In this document: positions 5,425-47,833 of the stretch, one piece after another
Numbering within the stretch: the stretch's first letter is position 1
How the letters are laid out: every line of letters starts with the position of its first letter
Virus record (IMG/VR): IMGVR_UViG_3300038679_000051
Location: 1 to 64,000 of that record
Source: a virus
Lineage: Duplodnaviria > Caudoviricetes
Strand: one strand, 5' to 3'
Length of the DNA stretch: 64,000 nucleotides
Made by a program: the position numbers and the translations under genes
Notes under the pieces: model-generated
The model's input: only the letters and a program-made list of their open reading frames with translations
Database searches by the model: none
Told to the model about the DNA's origin: nothing

Positions 5425-5712
5425 ATGAAATTGGGAACGCCGTTGGAAGATGCCATTACGAAAAGATATGCTACGCTGGGATTTGCCCATACCATGGTAG
5501 GTGGGAATCCACATCAATTTATCGAATTATATGGTGGGAAACTCGTTGAAATGGTTGCACATCAACCCAGTGCGTCTACTTTTAGAGATGAATATTATTA
5601 CAATACGATGGAAAATCAGTTATATAAGAAAAACAACAATCCGCCACGATGGGTTAGAATAAGTGACGTCGTCATGTCTGATGACGGTATGAAGGATGTT
5701 GGAAGCGCATAA
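5425..5712 (+). CDS. Hypothetical protein
   Basis: GGAGA RBS, 95 aa, in operon. Confidence 0.7.
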   Translation: MKLGTPLEDAITKRYATLGFAHTMVGGNPHQFIELYGGKLVEMVAHQPSASTFRDEYYYNTMENQLYKKNNNPPRWVRISDVVMSDDGMKDVGSA

Positions 5713-5746
5713 AGACCAAAAATAAGTAAAGAAAAGGAGAAATGAA

Positions 5747-8209
5747 ATGACCAATTACAGAATCCCAGCAGTAAGTGGGTTGGTGGATCAACAATGGGTT
5801 GAAGTCATAGGACCGGATGGACTCACCACCTCCTTTTCATATGATGCCGAATCAAAATCATTATATATTAAAGAGTCCCAAATCATCATTCCACCATTCC
5901 ACGGTGGGATGCATGTCACGTCTGATCCCATACCAGAGGCGACTTGTGATCTCAAGGGCTTAATGTCTGCCGATGATAAATGCAAATTAGATGCAGTCAC
6001 ACAGACTAGACTCGGCGTTCTAGGTTTCCAAGGTAGTGGATTCCCAGATGATGGTGGTTGGATGACCGGTGACATAATGCTTGCTGCCGGTACGGAGTTC
6101 ATTTCTTTAGAACGCATTGGCAACGTCATTCGGTTTACCGTCGATTCGCCGTTGCCGCTGGCTTGTGATTGTGAAGAATGTTATCAAATATTCTGGCAGC
6201 AAGATGAGTCAGACGTTGCTGCAATACGCCCACCGTCATGTAATGGTAAACTACCTGGCGTCAATGCTTATGGTGAAGTGAAATTTTATTTAATGCCAGA
6301 GACGGCAATATTGGATACGACTAAGCCATTGTCATTGTTGAATCAGAAGGGCAAATATCCCTCGCTGATTTTCAAACGATACGATGATGCCATAACGCCT
6401 GGATCAGGCGAACTAGACATCGTTTTAAAGCGGCGGGCTAATTTAGCCACGCAAATCGGTTGGTCATTTACTCCTGGTGCGAGTGGAGTGCCACAATGTG
6501 TGTGGACGCTCGGTGACGATTCCCAAGGTAATGAACGACGATTCGAATTCAGGCCGCAATCTGATCCTGGTTTGTTAGGCGAGCTTTTATATAAAGGCCA
6601 TTTATTGACCAAACAAATGGCCGTCATCGTCGGCTATGATGCTACCGTGTTGTCTACCAATCAATATAAGGCACGTTATTGGGACGTCAAAAATGCCGTC
6701 CCGATTGGTGATCAATTCACGGCAACTAACGTTTGGCGTTATGAAAATCCAGAAAATCAATGTACGGCAGTGGTCAACCCTAAGGTATTGACTGTTGACG
6801 GTTCACAAGACATCCTACCGACCGGTACGTTGGTTTCTCTCTGGGAGTACAAGGTCGGCGGCTCAAGCCAACCAATTCGCCGCCGATTTTTTAGTCAACG
6901 ACCACCGTTGAATGCCGGTTCGTTGTGGGCTATGACTGATGCCATTAAATTTGGTGATTTATTGGTGGCACGCGAAGAATTACCAGAAGGTGATTCAGCA
7001 GAACTTTCCGCTAGTGATGTTGGCGTTGCCGACATTAGACTAATTGAGCGCACCATTTGGGGCTTGACTGGTTTTGAGGATCGTTTAATCTTGTCAGATG
7101 ACGGTGAAGAACATGAACCGTCTGGCATGGTATTGAATCAGCAAGCTGTAGCTGATATTGATTATTCTTTACCGGGTATGCGCGTGCATACCATCGATCC
7201 AGAGGCAGTTGTTGAGCGGCCAGTATTCCTGTGGACGCGTAGAAATCATAGAAATGCATACGTTAAGGCATTGATAGGCATGCCAACTAGAAGCGATTTT
7301 CCACCATATGACATATTGCTCCGTGCACCAGTCGACAGTTTTGATGACGTATATATGAGGGTCACTCATCGTGGCACGTTCACTACTGGTCCATTTGCTG
7401 GTAGCAATTATATAGTAGTTAAGGGACAACACTGGCGTGACGTGCCCTCATCAGGAACGTTGCGACACCTGACGCCGGATCATTTAGGCCAATTGTGGAA
7501 ATATTATTTCAAGGCAGCTTTCTCCTATACCGACGACGATGGCATAACTTTAATTGGCGGTTCCGAGCCATTTCCTTTTGATTATGGAACTGCTGGAACT
7601 AGCGTGCCAAATGAACCAATCACCGTACAATTACTACATCATGATTATAACGCTCCATGCGTCCGCGTTGAATTTTCAGTTGATGAGACGACTGATGCAA
7701 ATTCAGTGCAACTGCAGTTTAAGGTCGGCATACTCGACATGTCAGAACGATATGAATTGAACAAAAGTCTGGAAAGCAAGGATGATTTGGTCCGTGGTTT
7801 GATGCCAGGTTATTGCGTCAGTAAAGTGATGACGCAAGATGGGTTCATCATTCATGGTGATGAAAAACCAGCCTCTGATCCACTTGGTTTCAAAGTCTAT
7901 AAAGGTGGATATCTGACCATACCGATCCAAGGACAAAGTGAGATTTGGAACACGCTTGAAATAATGTATAGAGATTCGCAAGTGTGGATATGGTGGAATG
8001 GGTTGCTTGTTCCGGCTGATGCAGCTGCCTCTGCTGCTTTACCGCACCCTGTCGTAGCTAATACTCCTTATTTTCCATTGATTTCTAATGTAGAAATTGG
8101 AAAGGTCGCTCTTCGAATGTTTCCAGATGCTACAATAAGAAAATTAGAGGTGAGTGATCAGTGTGCACAACACAATGAATATCAATATGGTCAAATCAAT
8201 TTAGTATAA
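5747..8209 (+). CDS. Putative tail/fibre structural protein
   Basis: 820 aa; AT..GLMS..DK.KLD fibre motif (ATCDLKGLMSADDKCKLD); beta-rich. Confidence 0.75.
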   Translation: MTNYRIPAVSGLVDQQWVEVIGPDGLTTSFSYDAESKSLYIKESQIIIPPFHGGMHVTSDPIPEATCDLKGLMSADDKCKLDAVTQTRLGVLGFQGSGFPDDGGWMTGDIMLAAGTEFISLERIGNVIRFTVDSPLPLACDCEECYQIFWQQDESDVAAIRPPSCNGKLPGVNAYGEVKFYLMPETAILDTTKPLSLLNQKGKYPSLIFKRYDDAITPGSGELDIVLKRRANLATQIGWSFTPGASGVPQCVWTLGDDSQGNERRFEFRPQSDPGLLGELLYKGHLLTKQMAVIVGYDATVLSTNQYKARYWDVKNAVPIGDQFTATNVWRYENPENQCTAVVNPKVLTVDGSQDILPTGTLVSLWEYKVGGSSQPIRRRFFSQRPPLNAGSLWAMTDAIKFGDLLVAREELPEGDSAELSASDVGVADIRLIERTIWGLTGFEDRLILSDDGEEHEPSGMVLNQQAVADIDYSLPGMRVHTIDPEAVVERPVFLWTRRNHRNAYVKALIGMPTRSDFPPYDILLRAPVDSFDDVYMRVTHRGTFTTGPFAGSNYIVVKGQHWRDVPSSGTLRHLTPDHLGQLWKYYFKAAFSYTDDDGITLIGGSEPFPFDYGTAGTSVPNEPITVQLLHHDYNAPCVRVEFSVDETTDANSVQLQFKVGILDMSERYELNKSLESKDDLVRGLMPGYCVSKVMTQDGFIIHGDEKPASDPLGFKVYKGGYLTIPIQGQSEIWNTLEIMYRDSQVWIWWNGLLVPADAAASAALPHPVVANTPYFPLISNVEIGKVALRMFPDATIRKLEVSDQCAQHNEYQYGQINLV

Positions 8210-15119: not shown

Positions 15120-18100
15120 ATGGGATTTCCTCCGAATCCGATCGATAAACAAATAGTTGAAGTTGGTGGGTCGGTCTACATTTATTCAACGTCAAGCAAA
15201 GCATGGATTAGGGTAGATGGGATATTTGATCCATCTTTAGCTACGCCACAGTCTGATGGGTTGATGTCTAAAGAAGATTTTAATAAGATCATGGGTTTGT
15301 TATTGCCTCCACCGAGAATCACACTGACTTCACAGGATTGCAATGCGAAATTCGATCAAGGCGTAATTTCATTACGTTCATTAGATGAATCCTTAAACAT
15401 AACGTCATCACCTAAAATAATGAACAAAATTGCCGGGGTTTCTGGTCAAGATAAACCATGGCATTTACATGAAGATACCCATGCATTCGATTTTACCGTA
15501 AACATTGATCAATTATTGGAAGAGGTGTCGCAACGTGGCAAATTGCGATACAAAAAGACAAAAGGCCCACAAGGGGCAAAGGGACCAAGGGGTGAACCGG
15601 GGATTGACCGCTTAGATACGGGTCCACAGGGTCCTGTCGGCGATCCTGGTGCCAATGCTCCATTTGATGGCATCTTGACGTTGGATAACGTTTCATTTGT
15701 ACAAGCTGACCCAAACGCAAATCGGGCAATAGTTGACATAACTACGGAAAGCATCTCTCCTGAAGAGAATTATATAGTGGTAAGTCGTGCCACTATTGGC
15801 AATCCAAATGCTTGTCCAAAATTAGTGAGGCCGAAGAAATATAACAGCCCATGGTTGTTAGTCGCTGACGTACCGCCCGGTCAGTGTTTCGTGCGAGATC
15901 CAAAATGTGATACGTCATGCGGTACGACGTTGTATTACGTTGACGTGACGATCATTTTGCAATTGTTACAAGAACGATATGAGACGTTGGTTCGTACTTT
16001 GAAAGCCAGAAAAGAAGCATTGGTACTTGAGTGGATGAGGACGATGATTGCCGTCTTCAATACTCAGAAGAATGCCATATGTTGTGCTTTAGAAAACTGT
16101 CAATCTAGAACGAGAAACCAGGATTTCCGTGACAGAGTTGACAATGCTCGAATTCAAGCAGCACAAAGCGATTTAAAATTAATCATGCAGGGGCCAGGTA
16201 AGGATATGATTGAAATGGATCCGGACAAGGAATGTTCTTTGCCCGGTGGTGGTGCAGACGTGGTACAAATGAAGTGTTCATCGTTGATCCAATCCATTCC
16301 AAACAGTTGGGTACAATCGCCGGATGGTTATGAACCGGTGCCGCTCGCAGACATCCCTGGTATGAATTTGCCAAACGGTGGGCCATGGACCGATGCACCG
16401 ACGCCATATAATTTGGCCGTCGATTTGGAGCGTGGTCTATATAGAGCTAAAATAATTGATTGTTGCCCAGTAAACATCGGTGATGCTGATCCGGGTGGTG
16501 TAGGGACTGATGACGTTGCCACTCGAAATGGTAATTGGCGAACTACTGGCGACATGAAACGGTGGAGAAATTCTGGATTGGTGGTTGTGAACATTGGCGA
16601 CAATAAGGCGATGGTCATAGGTGGTTTAGGGGGCGTTAATCATCCAAAAACTGACAGTGGTTGGAATATGGATTATGTCAGCAGTAGGACTATCCCAGAA
16701 ATTTATGACTATTCGACTGAGAGATGGACGGATGCTGCGTCCGTAACATATGCGCCGGGATATATTGGTGGACATAATGCCATTCTTTTAAACAATGGTA
16801 AAGTTCTGCTTGCTGGTGGTTATGATGCCTATTCTGGGGCTTACGCACCGTTCTGTGAATTATATAATCCATCTACTGATACTTGGGCAACAACTGGTAA
16901 TATGGTTGGCGTACTTGGTCGTCGTGAATTTACCATGACGATGCTCAATGATGGTAGGGTTTTGGTTGTCGGGGGGCGACATCCAACTAGCGCATCAAGT
17001 TATGCAAGTTTGACGCCCACCATTTCGTGTGAGATTTATGATCCAAACACTGGAACCTGGGCTGTGACCGGCGGTATGTCGGTGCCTAGATTTGGACATA
17101 CGGCAACGTTATTGTCTAATGGTACGGTGCTCGTTGCTGGTGGTAGAGATGGAAGTTCGGTAACGCATAAGACGGCGGAAATTTATGACATAGCTTCTGG
17201 GACGTGGTCTCAGACTGGCGAAATGACTTATGGGGTATATGGACATGATGCAGCATTAATGACGGATGGAAGGGTCGTCATTGCTGGTGGTGTGAAATCC
17301 GACCCAAGCGTTTATACTGCAACGGAAACTACATCATGTCAATTTTATACGCCATCTACTAATTCATGGATTAATGCACCAGAGATGCACACTGGGTCAA
17401 GTAGATTGGCAATATTGCCTAACGGCAATATGTTGAATGGTGGTCCGAGAGCCAGCGAAGTGTTAGCAAGATCAGATGGATCATATAAATGGGGTGACAT
17501 ATATACGTCGGCAAGCGGTGGAACAAATGTTGCATCAACTACGCTTGACAATAGCGTCATAATTGCAGTGGGGCATAATACAATTAGTTATGGATTCAAT
17601 AAGAATTCGTCCGTTTATGAACCATTGACTGCAGGAAATGAGATTGATCCATACAATCCAGAAGGTGCATATCCCACAATCCACAAATCACGCAAGATAC
17701 AATTGGCATATAATTCAGGTGACAATTATTTGGTATTAGGCCAAATCAAGGATTATTCAAAGGAAATTGCCAAGCTGGGCGGCGTAAAGGCGCTGGATCC
17801 TGCGTCGGTCGTCTGGCCGAAATTGCATAACATCATGAATTCGGATCCAAACAATCATGTGCCGGTTCTATTCAGTCACAATGGTGGTTGGGTAGGAAGT
17901 TTCATCAATCATGATCAGCCCTATACTAATTCCGGTCCAAACGACGCCATAGTGATGGGTCCTGCAACCATATTAATTGAAGACATGGAGTGTGCCTGTC
18001 GTGGTGCGCTCGTCACACTTGATCCTCGCATCCACGTTACGTCGGAATTCAATGAAAACATCGGCGTGCGCGTTGATGGGTTGCAAGCGGGCGAATATGT

Positions 18101-27323: not shown

Positions 27324-27970
27324 TCAAGCCTTCATATAGAAATGATTGATTTGTTGTTTGTGTACTAATTTATATCCAATTGAACTAAATTGGGCAGCTT
27401 CTGCGGCATTTCTGTTTTCGTATGGACATTCAATCACGAATACCTTCGGATATAATTCTTTTTTAGTGAATCCTTTTATAGCATCAAGTTCACCACCTTC
27501 TAGATCAACCGACATTACGTCTATGCTCTTAATATCTGCCATGTCCGTTTCGAACAATTTATCAAGTGTTCTGACTTTTACCTTGATATCTTTTTTATAT
27601 TTATAAATGCCAGTTTTAAGATCAGCTTCAGTATGTATATATGGTTTTAGAGCTGAAGCAGCTTCCATCGTTACTACTCCACCAGCATATCCAGCCCAAT
27701 CGGTTGCTCTAAATATTGAAAATTTACGTCATCAGCATTATAATCAGCAACGGCACATTCGATTATTCTGCGATTAGCAGCGCGATGCATTTGGGTGAAT
27801 TCAGGATTTGCTTCTATTCCAACGGTAATCCAACCCGATTCAAAAAAATGACGAGACAAAGAAATGAAATCAGGTCTACCCGCACCTACTTCAATGAACG
27901 TGCCTTTATAATTCATGTCTGGAAAGATGTTTCTGATGGCCTGATCAGTCTCGAATTCTCCATAAAACAT
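27324..27970 (-). pseudogene. FkbM-family methyltransferase split by a -1 frameshift at AAATTTT (27725-27719)
   Basis: 5' half has FIEVGA..GIEANP; 3' half has VRTLDKL..IDVMSVDLEGGE..VFVIE; halves join with one extra T. Confidence 0.8.
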
Positions 27971-28729
27971 TTAGATGATGTCCTTTGTGTAGTATGGGTG
28001 GGTTTTTAACACATTTGGCAAATTTTCTAGCTCAAATGGTTTGGCAACCCCCCAAAAATTCTGATGGCAGGTTGGATGCAGGTCTGACATTGACCTATCC
28101 ATAGGCCATGCTTTGAACTTGGATTCAAACCATTCAGGTCGCCATTCACCTTTATGACCATGAATGTCAATTTTATATTTGATGAATCTCTCCTCGCGAG
28201 CATATCCAAAATGAAATACTGGTCCAAATTCTGCTGGTACGCAGCGATATGTGCCATATGATGCCGTCCTTTTAGGAGCATATAATCTATCTGGCATGCA
28301 TGGATCAGTGAGATGATATTTGAATGATCTCCAGAAATGAATGAATGGCATTTTAAAACAACTAACGTCGGTTGTTTTTAAACAATACTCGATGATTCTA
28401 CCTATTGTGTTCTCATGCCATATTTCATCAGCATCTACCACCAAAATGAGATCAGCCGCTCCATAATGCTTCCCAACCACACCACGGTGCTGTCCCTCGT
28501 GGGCATAACGTCCATCTACAACATGAATTTTATTTCCTGGATCTCCAAAAACATAGAGTGCATCCATAACGTCAGCACGAGTCTCTGGGTTTAATAAATT
28601 GGTGCCATGTCCATGAGATGGTTGATCAGTATAAACGACAAATATTTTGTCAACATGATCATAAATCGATTTTACTGAATATGCTAAATAATCGCATCCG
28701 TAATGTAAGATGTAGTTTGCTACAATCAT
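27971..28729 (-). CDS. Glycosyltransferase family 2-like
   Basis: ILVVDADEIW; PVFHFGY. Confidence 0.75.
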   Translation of the reverse strand: MIVANYILHYGCDYLAYSVKSIYDHVDKIFVVYTDQPSHGHGTNLLNPETRADVMDALYVFGDPGNKIHVVDGRYAHEGQHRGVVGKHYGAADLILVVDADEIWHENTIGRIIEYCLKTTDVSCFKMPFIHFWRSFKYHLTDPCMPDRLYAPKRTASYGTYRCVPAEFGPVFHFGYAREERFIKYKIDIHGHKGEWRPEWFESKFKAWPMDRSMSDLHPTCHQNFWGVAKPFELENLPNVLKTHPYYTKDII

Positions 28730-29487
28730 GTTGATCTCCTTATTTTTTCTAAAAAGATGTAAACATCCCCGTAATTCTTACAGTTGACGAAATTGTTATC
28801 CCACAATTTGAAAGGGTAATTCCAACCAAGAAACGCTCTTGGTTTATTTCTATTTATCTCTGTGTAACTAGCGGCATTCACTCCACTGCCACGCATCATT
28901 AAGGCGGTACAGACATTGCTCAAATTAGACAATGAAATTAAATTTGCGCTCTGACAATCATGTACGTTTGGAAAACCAGTGGGGGGAGTTGATGAGGTAT
29001 AAAATTGGAGATCTTTAAAATCGTTGGCCATTTTTGGTATTATCTCATTCATGTCGATATAATTTTGAAATGATAAACTTGGACCATTTTCAACTAAGAT
29101 ACATTTCTGGGGCATAGTAGTAATTTCTACATGTGGAAATTCTATCATCGGATGTTTGTCTGGTGGCTGTAATCTATAGAATAATTTTTGTTGTTCCATT
29201 TGTCTATTGAATGAATGGAGTTGAGTAAAATATGTCATGTGATGGGCATGTAGGATGTCATGAAAATAGCCAAACCAAGCATTAAAAATATTGCTGTTGT
29301 TTGCTTTTTCTACTACGGGGAGACCCAAATCACTCAATAAATAATGATGTTTTGCTGGGAATTGTAAAGTAATCCGTATGTCTTCAAAGGAATTTTTAAT
29401 AGATAAAATGATTGGTCTGGTTAAAATTACGTCGCCAGCGTGTGACTGGTTTCCATCATGAAAACGATTGATGATTGTTAAATCCAT
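28726..29487 (-). CDS. Hypothetical protein (glycosyltransferase-like)
   Basis: GDVILTRP GT9-like start; island context. Confidence 0.55.
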   Translation of the reverse strand: MDLTIINRFHDGNQSHAGDVILTRPIILSIKNSFEDIRITLQFPAKHHYLLSDLGLPVVEKANNSNIFNAWFGYFHDILHAHHMTYFTQLHSFNRQMEQQKLFYRLQPPDKHPMIEFPHVEITTMPQKCILVENGPSLSFQNYIDMNEIIPKMANDFKDLQFYTSSTPPTGFPNVHDCQSANLISLSNLSNVCTALMMRGSGVNAASYTEINRNKPRAFLGWNYPFKLWDNNFVNCKNYGDVYIFLEKIRRST

Positions 29488-31138: not shown

Positions 31139-31876
31139 TCATTTAATCTTTTTGAATTCGGTTACGACGAACTTACCGAAGCCTTGTGACCGACTGGCAC
31201 CTAAGCCATCTCCTTCGGCCAATTTCAGCATCCGCTTAATGTGCTCTTCTTTGAAGGCACCGTTGATTGGCCACTTGATGGTAAAGGTGGCTTGTGCTTT
31301 TTCGACATATTCATGTCTACCGATGGCCGACCGTCGTCCGGATGCATCGCTGATGTGCTTTATGCGATCGACGTTGCCGTCTGCTTTCTTAATTGGTTTA
31401 CCGTCTTTGAGCAACCTGATGCGCAGTGGGTCGATGTGTAGGCCGTGCTGCAACGTTTGGCGACCACCAGCATGTCCAGCATTGTCGTCATTGCTCTTGC
31501 GTTTGCCGGGCGGCAATTGCGTTATACCAAGCGTGACGGCACATTCGCGCAACAATGCCTTGACGTTGGCATGCCATATGGTCAAACATTGTTCATTGTC
31601 GCGTTCAAACACGCAGCAATTCGATTCCTTAGCCGATACCAATTCATTATCGAGCAATTTTCCATCTCGCACTCGTTCGCGAAATTCCTCCTTTTCCTTA
31701 TCGGACATGTGTTTGGCTTCCATGTAAAATTCAAGCATGTCACCCATCGCAGGGCAACCACCAAGCACTTTGTCTAAGAAACATATGCTCACTTGATATT
31801 CTTCAAAAAGTTTGACGTCATCCAACACTGACAACACTGATTTCGTTTTTGTTTCAGTCTTTGTTTTGATTTGCAT
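31139..31876 (-). CDS. Solitary Cas7/RAMP-like protein (Csf2/Vipr-like)
   Basis: YQVSICFLDKVLGGCP; FERD...IWHANVKALLRE; C-terminal G-loop GLGASRSQGFGKFVV; AAGGAG RBS. Confidence 0.8.
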   Translation of the reverse strand: MQIKTKTETKTKSVLSVLDDVKLFEEYQVSICFLDKVLGGCPAMGDMLEFYMEAKHMSDKEKEEFRERVRDGKLLDNELVSAKESNCCVFERDNEQCLTIWHANVKALLRECAVTLGITQLPPGKRKSNDDNAGHAGGRQTLQHGLHIDPLRIRLLKDGKPIKKADGNVDRIKHISDASGRRSAIGRHEYVEKAQATFTIKWPINGAFKEEHIKRMLKLAEGDGLGASRSQGFGKFVVTEFKKIK

Positions 31877-31891
31877 TTTTGTCTCCTTTAA

Positions 31892-32091
31892 GGGTTGCCT
31901 TGGAAAGGCCAGGTCTAGATGGGCATGTCACTTGGGCGGAGCAGGAGCGACTTGGTGTGGCCCGTCTCAAATGTCTCAGCATGTCACACTCCGGGTTAAA
32001 TGGCATGTCGCAAAGGCTCGGCTTGAATTGGCTAGTCTCAAATGTCACAAAGGCCCGGAATGGCTTGTCACGGACTGTACCGACTTGTCAC
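31892..32091. repeat. Pentamer-periodic array G(G/T/A)N-NN with recurring GTCNC-AAA(T) punctuation; candidate guide RNA locus
   Basis: 36 pentamers in 7 runs, 33 start with G (+ strand); GTC[A/T/G]C occurs 9 times; lies directly 5' of the RAMP gene RBS. Confidence 0.75.
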
Positions 32092-32155
32092 ATGGACGTC
32101 TATTCTTTTTATGCTCGTTCGTCAATTTTCTAGGATTCTTGACCAAATATATTTT

Positions 32156-33325
32156 ATGATAGGCACTACTAAATATATTGAATTGGTTGCCGTTAGACAG
32201 CATGGCAGCGTCACCATAAGCAATGGTAACGTCCGTGAAATTTATACACCTACGTTTGGCATGGTGATTAGGGACGTCGTCTGGAAAGCGAATTTGAATC
32301 CATCTGATTTTGATGTTTGGGTGCCTGATTATGAGCACATGAATCTTAAACAAGCTGGTGTGATGGATCCGGTCACCAATGGTGACGTAATCGTATTGAC
32401 GCACATTGCATTTGGGATGGATTATAAAAAAGCCACTGAGGCATATGCATTGCTCAAATCAATCATGCCCAGTAGATATGCCGTCTTTAGGGAATCCGAC
32501 CCTGGTTCTGGCTCTGACATACCGTCCAAGGTCCCGCCACACGCCATCATCAGCCTTACCGAACGTTTTGGCGATGCGCCGTTGGACGTTTTGTTCGATG
32601 CGTCTGGGTCATATGATGAAATCGTTTCAATAACTGAATATGAGTGGAATTTTGGTGACGGCAACAAATCATCTGAACCGGTGGTTGACCATCAATATCA
32701 GAAAAATGGTGCTTTCACGGTCACGCTGACCGTGAAAAATGATTTGGGCATGATCGGCAGTACGACCAGACAGATATTGGTCGGTCCAGCCAACGTTCCG
32801 ACGGCAGCAGATCAATCGGTTGCCACGGTGGTCAACAGGAGCGTCAACATAACTTTAGTGGCGAATGATCCACAGGGACGTAGTTTGACGTATTCGGTTG
32901 TTAGGGTGCCATTGCATGGTACGCTTACTGGCATGGCACCTAATTTGACATATACGCCAAATGCCACATACGAAGGTGATGACGACTTCATTTTCAAGGC
33001 CAATAATGGGGCAGTAGACACTAACTCTGCGACCGTCAGCATCTCCATCAAATCTTCTGAGACGCCAGAAATTATCTCAGGACCTACTGTGACGCCGGAT
33101 TCAGTCAGCATGGATGAACCGGTATATTTTGGAATATCTGCCATTTCCACCAGTCCGATTGCCTTAAGATATATGTGGAATTTCGGCGATGGCAACATAT
33201 CTACTGTACAGAATCCAATGCATACATATGCATCGTCGGGGACGTTTATAGCGACCGTGACCATTAGCGTGGGCAACAGCACGACGGTGAAAACGGTTGC
33301 GGCGATTAGTGTCTTAGTAGGCTAA
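32156..33325 (+). CDS. PKD / Ig-like (PKD-Big_9-PKD) decoration protein
   Basis: FDASGSYD..YEWNFGDG..HQY..GAFTVTLTV; LTYTPNATYEGDDDFIFKANNG; YMWNFGDG..HTY. Confidence 0.88.
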   Translation: MIGTTKYIELVAVRQHGSVTISNGNVREIYTPTFGMVIRDVVWKANLNPSDFDVWVPDYEHMNLKQAGVMDPVTNGDVIVLTHIAFGMDYKKATEAYALLKSIMPSRYAVFRESDPGSGSDIPSKVPPHAIISLTERFGDAPLDVLFDASGSYDEIVSITEYEWNFGDGNKSSEPVVDHQYQKNGAFTVTLTVKNDLGMIGSTTRQILVGPANVPTAADQSVATVVNRSVNITLVANDPQGRSLTYSVVRVPLHGTLTGMAPNLTYTPNATYEGDDDFIFKANNGAVDTNSATVSISIKSSETPEIISGPTVTPDSVSMDEPVYFGISAISTSPIALRYMWNFGDGNISTVQNPMHTYASSGTFIATVTISVGNSTTVKTVAAISVLVG

Positions 33326-44557: not shown

Positions 44558-45175
44558 CTAACCAATAACGATGTGCTCAATGAGTAATTCTTCGTCTTTA
44601 TTTTTCGACTCATGTTCTTTCTTCGCCGCCCTCGCCTCCTGTAAGGAACAGAAGACATTGCCATTGTATATGAAAGCTCGCTTAATTTCGCTCACGTGGC
44701 CAACCAACATTTGTCCAACTATCCCTCTTAATTTCTCATCTCTGATATGCCCAAGCGCGTCATTATTTTGTTTTACTGCTGCCAGACAGATTTCTGGCGT
44801 CTGTTCTTTGACGTATTCAAGTGCCGAACCATCCCATTGCACTGCTGCTATACACATTTCTGGCGTCTGCTCTCTGACATATCGAAGTGCCCAACCAATT
44901 CGTTGCACTGCTGCTATACACATTTCTGGCGTCTGTTCCTTGACATATTGAAGTGCATTACAGTCTTCTCGTACCGCCGTTATGCATATTTCAGGAAATT
45001 GTTTATCTAAATGTTTAAGTACATCACACCAGAAGGAATATAAAGACACTTTATCATTCAATAATTGCTCAACGATCATTTCGTCCTCCATGTTTTTATG
45101 ATTATCATCAATCTTCCTCACTGCCTGGATCACGTCATTCAATTGTTCTTTAGTCACCTCAGAGAGCCAATGCAT
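44558..45175 (-). CDS. DUF4116-repeat protein, paralog 1
   Basis: (EQTPEMCIAAV.....AL.YVK)n; AAGGAG RBS. Confidence 0.85.
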   Translation of the reverse strand: MHWLSEVTKEQLNDVIQAVRKIDDNHKNMEDEMIVEQLLNDKVSLYSFWCDVLKHLDKQFPEICITAVREDCNALQYVKEQTPEMCIAAVQRIGWALRYVREQTPEMCIAAVQWDGSALEYVKEQTPEICLAAVKQNNDALGHIRDEKLRGIVGQMLVGHVSEIKRAFIYNGNVFCSLQEARAAKKEHESKNKDEELLIEHIVIG

Positions 45176-46698: not shown

Positions 46699-47403
46699 CT
46701 AACATGAGGGTTCTGCTCCTATCCCTGCTTTTCTCAATGATGTACGAAGCTTTTCATTCTTGACGAATTCAAATGCCCGACCATTTTGTTTTATTGCCGC
46801 CATACATATCTCTGGTGTCTGTTCTATGACATATTTGAGTGCATAACCGTCTTGTTTTACTGCTGCCATGCATATTTCTGGCGTCTGCCCTTTGTTGTTC
46901 GCAGAACATTTAACATATTCAAGTACTGGGCCATGTCGTTTTACTGCCATCATACACATTTCTGGTGTCTGCTCTTTGATCCATTGAAGTGCCCGACCAT
47001 TTTGTTTTATTGCCGCCATACATATCTCTGGCGTCTGTTCTTTGACAAAATGGAAACAGTGGACGAATTCATCCTGCTTCACTGCTGCCATACATAATTC
47101 AGGCGTCTGTTCTTTGACATATTCAAGTGCCCAACAATTCTGTTTTACTGCCGCTAAACATAATTCTGGCGTCTGTTCTTTGATAAATAAGAGTGCATGG
47201 CCATTCTGTTTTACTGCGGCCATACAAATTGCGGGGAATTGTTTATCTAAATGCGCAAGCGTCTCATATAAATCTATGTCATCATCCAGTAATTTCTTGA
47301 CAATTTTTTTGTCTTTCATTGAAGCATGGACATCATCTATGCTTCTTACGGCTCGAAACACGTCCTGCAACTGTTTATCGGTCACTTCCATCATCCAATG
47401 CAT
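46699..47403 (-). CDS. DUF4116-repeat protein, paralog 2
   Basis: Six EQTPE(I/L/M)C repeats, one interrupted by CSANNKG. Confidence 0.87.
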   Translation of the reverse strand: MHWMMEVTDKQLQDVFRAVRSIDDVHASMKDKKIVKKLLDDDIDLYETLAHLDKQFPAICMAAVKQNGHALLFIKEQTPELCLAAVKQNCWALEYVKEQTPELCMAAVKQDEFVHCFHFVKEQTPEICMAAIKQNGRALQWIKEQTPEMCMMAVKRHGPVLEYVKCSANNKGQTPEICMAAVKQDGYALKYVIEQTPEICMAAIKQNGRAFEFVKNEKLRTSLRKAGIGAEPSC

Positions 47404-47415
47404 GTTCTATCCTTT

Positions 47416-47670
47416 TCATTCATCATCTGCGATGGCTTGTGCCGTTGCTCGTATAAATTCATCTGCAAATAAACCAGCCCGACGGACTGAAAACAATTCT
47501 GATTCTTTGTCTTTAGATATTATAGCAATGGCGAATAACAAATGATCTATGAGGTGCGTCATTTGTTTGAGATTTTCAAATCTCACATCATCCTCGTTCG
47601 TTTCACCAACCGGATTGATGGGTCCGACCAACTTATTAACGACTTTGTTCAAATTAATGTCGTTTCCCAT
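47416..47670 (-). CDS. Hypothetical protein
   Basis: GAAGGAG RBS; 84 aa. Confidence 0.7.
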   Translation of the reverse strand: MGNDINLNKVVNKLVGPINPVGETNEDDVRFENLKQMTHLIDHLLFAIAIISKDKESELFSVRRAGLFADEFIRATAQAIADDE

Positions 47671-47833
47671 TATCAGCTCCTTCCAACGGTACGTAATGTT
47701 TATAATTTGCCTTTAACAATGCCATTATCAGCTCCTTCCAACGGTACGTAATGTTTATAATTTGCCTTTAACAATGCCATTATCAGCTCCTTCCAACGGT
47801 ACGTAATGTTTATAATTTGCCTTTAACAATGCC
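47667..47833. repeat. Three perfect tandem copies of a 55-nt unit
   Basis: Units start at 47667, 47722 and 47777; each carries RBS plus ATG on the - strand. Confidence 0.95.

Follow-up and report, generated by a model that had tools for sequence, protein, structure and literature searches.

Systems termed VIPR (for Viral Interference Programmable Repeat) have been described in three 2026 preprints (10.64898/2026.04.26.720920, 10.64898/2026.04.26.720927 and 10.64898/2026.10.15.759431). Vipr is a minimal RAMP protein, encoded mostly by phages. The characterised guide RNAs (vrRNAs) consist of 9-16 pentamers of the form GGY/NN and end in a structured 3′ tail of ~40 nucleotides (nt) that does not vary. 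The NN dinucleotides pair with double-stranded DNA, every third base being skipped, and binding silences transcription. The natural targets are satellites and rival phages, with no self-targets in the systems of the preprint, and the third preprint is concerned with competition between SUSP1 and a satellite. Here we analyse a RAMP gene (vipr) and an adjoining pentanucleotide array in a 64,000-nt stretch of phage DNA (the window), comprising the first 64 kb of the 320,399-bp IMG/VR virus record IMGVR_UViG_3300038679_000051 (Duplodnaviria; Caudoviricetes). The locus is very probably a VIPR system; it belongs to a kind already published, of which it is a short, irregular form lacking accessory genes.

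In the methods of the preprint an array is defined by at least four tandem pentamers of YNNGG/GGYNN or a related consensus. The available text of the preprints distinguishes seven VIPR types, giving G-containing consensi for all of them, together with relaxed repeats (NNNGG, YNNNG and NNNNG) and six kinds of vap gene. It describes arrays that are staggered (the end of one vrRNA being the start of the next), arrays interspersed with ribozymes, and single vrRNAs; the staggered arrays are not among the architectures that are confirmed there by small-RNA sequencing. The reference locus for our comparison is that of SUSP1 (NC_028808), which is of type II, with vipr at 28474-29061, vap1 at 28031-28471 and vrRNAs within 27555-28014 and 29097-29290. 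In the solved type II structures there is one protomer per repeat, and the GGY sequence is held by the G-loop, the thumb and helix 1, with D177-W178-R179 contacting the GGY bases. Conversion of GGY to GAY or to GGA in the SUSP1 repeats abolished function. As a control, the periodicity scan used below recovered the known vrRNA regions of SUSP1, where the G strand is the vipr strand.

The gene in the window encodes a protein with the Cas7/Csm3 fold (Table 1), and a search of the whole genome with the Pfam RAMPs profile (PF03787) revealed no RAMP besides it, as expected from a preliminary description of the locus as containing a solitary Cas7-like RAMP. The protein has a helical insertion at approximately residues 47-85, a β-hairpin at residues 167-191 that is a candidate for the thumb, and a C-terminal G-loop (DGLGASRSQGFGKF, residues 222-235). 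When AlphaFold-DB clusters were searched with the window protein the best five matches were A0A1F4YLN4, A0A2D6XG06, X1U2U4, A0A661D0E2 and A0A0F9A1L0 (E from 2e-12 to 6e-7), all of which outrank every CRISPR RAMP. According to the discovery preprint these five are non-CRISPR RAMPs that founded the VIPR family, and the window protein is therefore tied to VIPR. This substantiates the link to VIPR that the preliminary description had made, and GGY/NN repeats are indeed published. PF03787 gave 14.8 bits with the window protein, below its cut-off of 22.1, through the G-loop part alone. PADLOC gave sub-threshold G-loop matches to Csm4 and Cas6 (E = 6e-5 or weaker), and a search of PHROGs returned nothing significant, with one match at E = 0.7. 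PDB 36pp, the structure of the SUSP1 Vipr, was not among the matches of the fold searches that were run.

The window protein is a member of a large family. A homolog search gave 19 proteins with 38-61% identity, all metagenomic, and the C-terminal G-loop is invariant in every one. The window Vipr has no frameshift and retains each family-invariant residue. A profile search of 1.8 billion representatives yielded 1035 clusters with E ≤ 1e-3, and with the stricter limit of E ≤ 1e-10 there were 510. Searching the DNA of GenBank phages with the locus gave no match, and a protein search of phage records found one relative, in Microcystis phage Mae-JY09, with 26% identity. A long open reading frame antisense to vipr (31152-31727) was discounted, being ordinary under synonymous-codon shuffling (p = 0.21).

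The array was parsed in the preliminary description into 36 pentamers, 33 of which have G at the first position, and this was reproduced letter for letter. G occupies position 2 in 20 of the pentamers, and there is a pyrimidine at position 3 in 25. The runs comprise 1-8 pentamers, and their sole end feature is a closing motif of 5 nt. This motif, GTCNC, occurs nine times in the 200 nt of the array, where 0.5 copies would be expected. The periodicity does not depend on phase breaks chosen by hand. Autocorrelation of G gave z = 4.82 at a lag of 5, 4.67 at 10 and 3.19 at 15, with depletion at lags of 2, 3, 7 and 12, measured against 2000 dinucleotide-preserving shuffles. We also calculated a phase-independent score d, i.e. 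the co-occurrence of G with G at lags 5 and 10 minus that at off-lags in segments of 100 nt. By this measure 31814-32151 ranks first for a 5-nt period across the entire genome (d = 25.3, compared with a mean of -0.27 and a standard deviation of 2.9), and the tract is the sole match in the window at a score threshold of 14. The tract 31892-32091 is identical in five DNA sequencing runs.

The array starts 3 nt from the ribosome-binding site of vipr and 15 nt from its ATG (31874-31876), in agreement with the earlier observation that on the minus strand it ends at that site. The G-periodic strand is plus and vipr is minus, so the G strand of the array is antisense to vipr. Because of this antisense placement, a description of the array as simply lying in the vipr leader is not supported.

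Table 1. Coordinates of the vipr gene, its ribosome-binding site and the elements of the pentanucleotide array, numbered from the first nucleotide of the window.
Feature	Position	Strand	Remarks
vipr	31139..31876	-	245-amino acid single-RRM RAMP, Cas7/Csm3 fold
Ribosome-binding site of vipr	31883..31888	-	AAGGAG, 6 nt ahead of ATG and 3 nt from array; read off the sequence
Pentanucleotide (vrRNA-type) array	31892..32091	+ (G-periodic strand)	36 units G-[G/T/A]-[C/A]-N-N in 7 runs
Guide unit A	31892..31931	+	8 pentamers, GTCAC end; dinucleotides TT TT AA CA CT TG AT (AC)
Guide unit B	31934..31968	+	7 pentamers, GTCTC end; preceded by 2-nt TT spacer, compared with the usual 3-nt A-N-N of the clade
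Irregular middle	31969..32014	+	AAAT, then GTCTC AGCAT GTCAC ACTCC GGGTT, AAAT, 2 pentamers (GTCGC end), AAA; contains near-empty units of AAATGTCNC type
Guide unit F	32012..32039	+	Canonical, 28 nt = AAA + 4 pentamers + GTCTC; clade rule length = 3 mod 5
Near-empty unit	32040..32048	+	AAAT + GTCAC
Guide unit H	32049..32071	+	Canonical, 23 nt = AAA + 3 pentamers + GTCAC; 3 mod 5 rule
Guide unit I	32072..32091	+	4 pentamers, GTCAC end; no prefix, in phase with H

Similar arrays were expected beside homologs of the gene, and this proved to be so. We assembled 51 non-redundant homolog loci (three by identity look-up, 13 from IMG/VR, and the rest from metagenomes, one contig of a metagenome-assembled genome and phage Mae-JY09). 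Arrays with a 5-nt period adjoin the vipr homolog in 45 of the 51, next to neighbour genes that are unrelated. In the close clade, i.e. proteins with 35-61% identity to the window Vipr, 119 units delimited by GTCNC could be compared, and these yield a simple grammar for the whole clade, A-N-N-(G-R-H-N-N)n-GTCGC. The unit length is 3 mod 5 in 82 of the 119, with modes at 33 and 38 nt. Position 1 of the pentamer is G in 94% of cases, position 2 is G (67%) or A (22%) and position 3 is non-G, while positions 4 and 5 are any base, with a near-uniform composition. The closing pentamer is GTCGC in 86 units, GTCAC in 23 and GTCTC in 7. In more distant clades the plan is the same, and the closing pentamer is GTTGC or GTCGG. 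Across the ~50 loci the arrays are made of mini-units of 3-10 pentamers without tails, arranged head to tail, each with a conserved closing pentamer.

The preliminary description had regarded the window array as more degenerate than GGY/NN, with A-rich punctuation, and this agrees well with the grammar of the close clade. Units F and H are canonical by the length rule, and so is unit A, which is 43 nt in length when its prefix is included. The cleanest array of the clade is at L029:3242-4709 (Ga0272441_10002599), where 35 units run head to tail over 1.5 kb directly after the vipr stop codon, nearly all of 23, 28, 33, 38 or 43 nt and closed by GTCGC or GTCAC. The arrays are hypervariable. Loci L035 and L041 have vipr genes that are 90% identical in DNA sequence and flanks that are 86-94% identical, and their arrays cannot be aligned. 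We note that this pair of soil phages (L035:1991-2632 and L041:1669-2423) would be well suited to a study of guide turnover.

The window has many of the attributes by which VIPR is recognised, i.e. a non-CRISPR context, an adjacent array of pentamers, homologs whose arrays are hypervariable, and carriage by a phage. In common with SUSP1 there is a single small RAMP on a phage genome, outside any cas operon, with an RRM core, a G-loop, a thumb and a helical bundle. In both, the flanking non-coding pentamers carry G at position 1-2 while two of their bases are free, and the guides are hypervariable between related loci. There are also clear differences. SUSP1 has a vap gene, a pseudoknot tail of ~40 nt and a promoter for each guide, none of which is present in the window. 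The guides of the window are head-to-tail units of 3-8 pentamers closed by GTCNC, compared with the 9-16 repeats of SUSP1, and the scaffold is relaxed from GGY to G-R-H. Whereas the G strand of SUSP1 is sense with respect to vipr, that of the window is antisense. The locus thus lacks what is specific to type II, namely vap1, the long tail, guides of 9-16 repeats and placement of the arrays on the vipr strand.

Other published arrangements are closer in some respects. The spacer-free, head-to-tail units of the window and its relaxed pentamer fit the description of staggered arrays in the available text of the preprints. An Rfam search for hammerheads, which were sought to fix the strand of the RNA, found none at 29-35 kb of the window or at 60 related loci, in contrast to the ribozyme-interspersed arrays. 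That the locus represents a new class of RNA-guided module is not supported, because seven types with relaxed repeat consensi are already covered by the VIPR preprints, as far as their available text goes. The Cas7 proteins of class 1 CRISPR systems (Csm3, Cmr4 and type VII Cas7) have a step of 6 nt, compared with 5 nt in the window. They belong to cas operons that are accompanied by a repeat-spacer array; the window has neither, and its protein scores below the family cut-offs of the profiles.

That the window contains an orphan Cas7 left by a degraded CRISPR-Cas system is scarcely credible. It could account for the weak Pfam and PADLOC G-loop matches to RAMPs, Csm4 and Cas6, yet all of these lie under the curated cut-offs. 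In addition the genome contains no second RAMP, vipr is not adjoined by cas genes and the window is devoid of repeat-spacer arrays. By fold, the non-CRISPR Vipr clusters are nearer to the protein than CRISPR RAMPs are.

From the comparison with SUSP1 we infer RNA production, strand, processing, target pairing and silencing as follows. The most likely source of guides would be a G-periodic RNA of the plus strand, divergent from vipr. Cleavage or termination of this RNA at every GTC(A/T/G)C pentamer may generate guides of 3-8 pentamers. By homology with SUSP1 one Vipr protomer would bind each pentamer, gripping the constant first three bases (G-R-H, relaxed from GGY). The last two bases of the pentamer would be displayed and could pair with double-stranded DNA, with one base skipped per dinucleotide. 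The resulting Vipr filament would block transcription of a rival mobile element. On balance we favour this reading as a whole, i.e. a VIPR system with a plus-strand guide RNA, and if the locus is a VIPR system then the G strand is probably the RNA.

A number of observations weigh against this interpretation. The pentamers of the window permit A at positions 2 and 3, changes that abolished function in SUSP1. In sequence the Vipr proteins of SUSP1 and the window resemble each other in the G-loop only (hhalign E = 0.12), similarity being otherwise at the level of the fold. Even there the invariant R229-S230-Q231 of the window protein aligns with D177-W178-R179 of the type II Vipr. Judged by the grammar of the clade the window array is short and irregular, with three of its nine units (A, F and H) obeying the length rule. 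There are only 15 nt between the array and the ATG of vipr, and the vipr mRNA must therefore start inside or beyond the array; it follows that the array is transcribed, at least in part, as its C-strand copy. Scans of the window for sigma-70 promoters revealed none that was convincing on either strand. A groundwater metatranscriptome (run X7) has a 152-nt contig lying wholly in the array (31926-32077) and in a second run (X6) a 151-nt contig falls within vipr (31573-31723), both being unstranded and of low depth with DNA carry-over possible.

Nor did the guides identify a target. The NN positions had been suggested to encode a gapped match, and those of the window array specify 6-16 bases. The genome of the phage itself was searched at skips of 0-3, the guides used being A, B, F, H+I and C-E, and the best matches were equal to those of shuffled guides; the sole perfect match with a skip of 3 was the array itself. 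In IMG/VR, guide A has 76 exact matches with a 1-nt skip, compared with 38 for the reversed control. These are considered to be at chance level because neither the genes nor the phages concerned are related, and near-identical contigs multiply the count. Two L029 guides that specify 20 bases each had no matches there. The IMG/VR searches were limited to exact matching, so the null results say little.

The strand of the guide was analysed at the level of the family. We scored sigma-70-like promoters in the flanks of the arrays, excluding the arrays themselves. The 5′ flank in the G sense has a mean score of 3.13. All three controls have lower means, i.e. 2.05 for the C sense scored at the flank that is 5′ to it (p = 0.019), 2.11 for the G sense at the opposite flank (p = 0.042) and 2.21 for the first flank read in the C sense (p = 0.012). 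Terminator-like hairpins follow six arrays in the G sense and none in the C sense. In the closest homolog, L021, the 79-nt gap between vipr and the array contains a promoter TTGACG-16-TATACA directed towards vipr, and TGTATAAT aimed into the array. When k-mers were used to seek a promoter motif specific to the phage, only words resembling ribosome-binding sites emerged. Taken together the promoter-like and terminator-like signals mildly favour RNA from the G strand.

The alternative is a VIPR system in which the functional guide is the C-rich strand, excised from the leader or trailer of the mRNA of vipr or its neighbour. The repeat would then be the mirror image GCGAC-(N-N-D-Y-C)n-N-N-U, read by a G-loop unlike that of SUSP1, and the presence of RSQ in place of DWR would be consistent with this. 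Of the 103 arrays in the loci examined, 97 have a G strand that is antisense to vipr, as it is in the window, whether the array is upstream or downstream, while in SUSP1 it is sense. Moreover the arrays fill their intergenic gaps up to the ribosome-binding site, start codon or stop codon of the neighbours, as in the 15 nt of the window and in L035, where the order is vipr stop, array and next ATG; this leaves no space for promoters. By crude open reading frame calls, both neighbours are opposite to the G strand at 39 arrays, compared with 13 where they are on the same strand. Lastly L021 and L044 carry good sigma-70-like promoters that enter the array in the C sense. Against all this, every characterised vrRNA is of the G type, and the consensi of the seven types in the available text contain G. 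Across the family it is the G-sense and not the C-sense promoter scores that exceed the controls. C-sense terminators are absent after the arrays, and four such terminators separate the array from the gene upstream of it. In L001 the third array is flanked on both sides by genes of the G strand. We consider that a C-strand guide at this locus is a real but minor possibility. It is similarly unlikely that the entire clade of ~50 Vipr loci uses a C-rich, mRNA-sense RNA derived from polycistronic transcripts, with the mirror-image N-N-D-Y-C scaffold and the RSQ G-loop.

Two other explanations retain the observed sequence features while denying the array a role in guiding. It is improbable, though compatible with several properties of the locus, that an intact vipr is accompanied by a decaying remnant without useful guides. 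The adherence of units A, F and H alone to the 3 mod 5 rule, the two empty units (AAATGTCNC), the 6-16 specified bases and the failure to find a target could all be read in this way. The same is true of closure by GTCAC or GTCTC where the clade mostly has GTCGC, and of a total of 36 pentamers compared with up to 35 whole units in L029. But the tract has the strongest periodicity of the genome and is the same in each of the five DNA runs, the Vipr is free of frameshifts with its invariant residues kept, and short units of 8-10 nt, and empty ones, are present within the long arrays of relatives too. It is very improbable that the tract functions as DNA, i.e. as iterons or the regulatory region of divergent genes, with its proximity to a RAMP gene incidental. 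The divergent intergenic site, and a period of 5 nt that equals half a helical turn, would suit such a role. Contrary to it, arrays accompany the homologs in 45 of the 51 loci, where the neighbours are unrelated, they are hypervariable between near-identical loci, and their base pattern is that of published vrRNAs.

We return to the reading that we prefer, a VIPR system with a guide RNA from the plus strand. If the G strand is used, every guide would be complementary to the leader of the mRNA of vipr or its neighbour, and guide production would be coupled to antisense control. If on the other hand the working RNA is C-rich, VIPR systems would have a second code for the recognition of RNA. In either case the inversion of the array strand relative to SUSP1 bears upon how guides are made and read. 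The locus would represent a minimal form of VIPR, with one protein and a 200-nt array, in a complete 320-kb jumbo phage of groundwater.

The source record has direct terminal repeats, is scored as 100% complete and has a G+C content of 41.5%. DNA of the phage was found in groundwater and coal metagenomes. The array lies in the divergent intergenic region between vipr and a gene encoding a protein with PKD/Big_9 domains (32156-33325), and the other neighbours of vipr encode proteins without family matches and GT2 glycosyltransferases. No cas genes and no DNA-binding or nuclease domains were found among the neighbour genes. No neighbour is common to the window and the 11 closest homolog loci, and there is therefore no vap-type accessory gene. 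In one relative (L003) the gene immediately upstream of the vipr homolog (53% identity), at 5475-5984, matches Pfam Acb2_Tad1_hairpin. Such proteins are phage sponges for bacterial immune signals, and vipr of L003 thus adjoins a counter-defence gene.

Analysis of the window by TRF gave no repeat-spacer array. A crude repeat scan of the whole genome found only regularly spaced repeats, with spacings of ~48-81 nt, and those in the window are tandems without spacers according to TRF. Several tandem repeats lie elsewhere in the window. At positions 1-329 a tandem repeat with a unit of 27 nt (7.9 copies, 97% matches) precedes repeats of 18 and 9 nt; the periods are all multiples of 9, as collagen-like G-x-y coding repeats would give. 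A 66-nt repeat family is present at 44775-44956 and 46762-47230 of the window and at ~66.9, 84.0, 94.3, 100.7 and 301.6 kb of the genome. Since 66 nt corresponds to 22 codons, the repeats probably encode a protein module that recurs. At 47667-47833 there is a perfect tandem repeat of 3 x 55 nt (100% matches), and 55 is not a multiple of three.

Outside the window there is a further tract with a 5-nt period, at 120,880-120,990 of the genome on the minus strand (~16,880-16,990 of locus L210). It is very G-rich, with a score of 19. An Rfam search of the genome at 104-122 kb found no hammerhead or other family at the gathering score or at E ≤ 0.5. The tract lies directly before a gene of the minus strand and after two copies of a repeat containing GGGTCGCATAYGG, which holds GTCGCA, the motif that closes guide units in the relatives. 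Possible identities for it are a solo guide-like element and a G-quadruplex tract.

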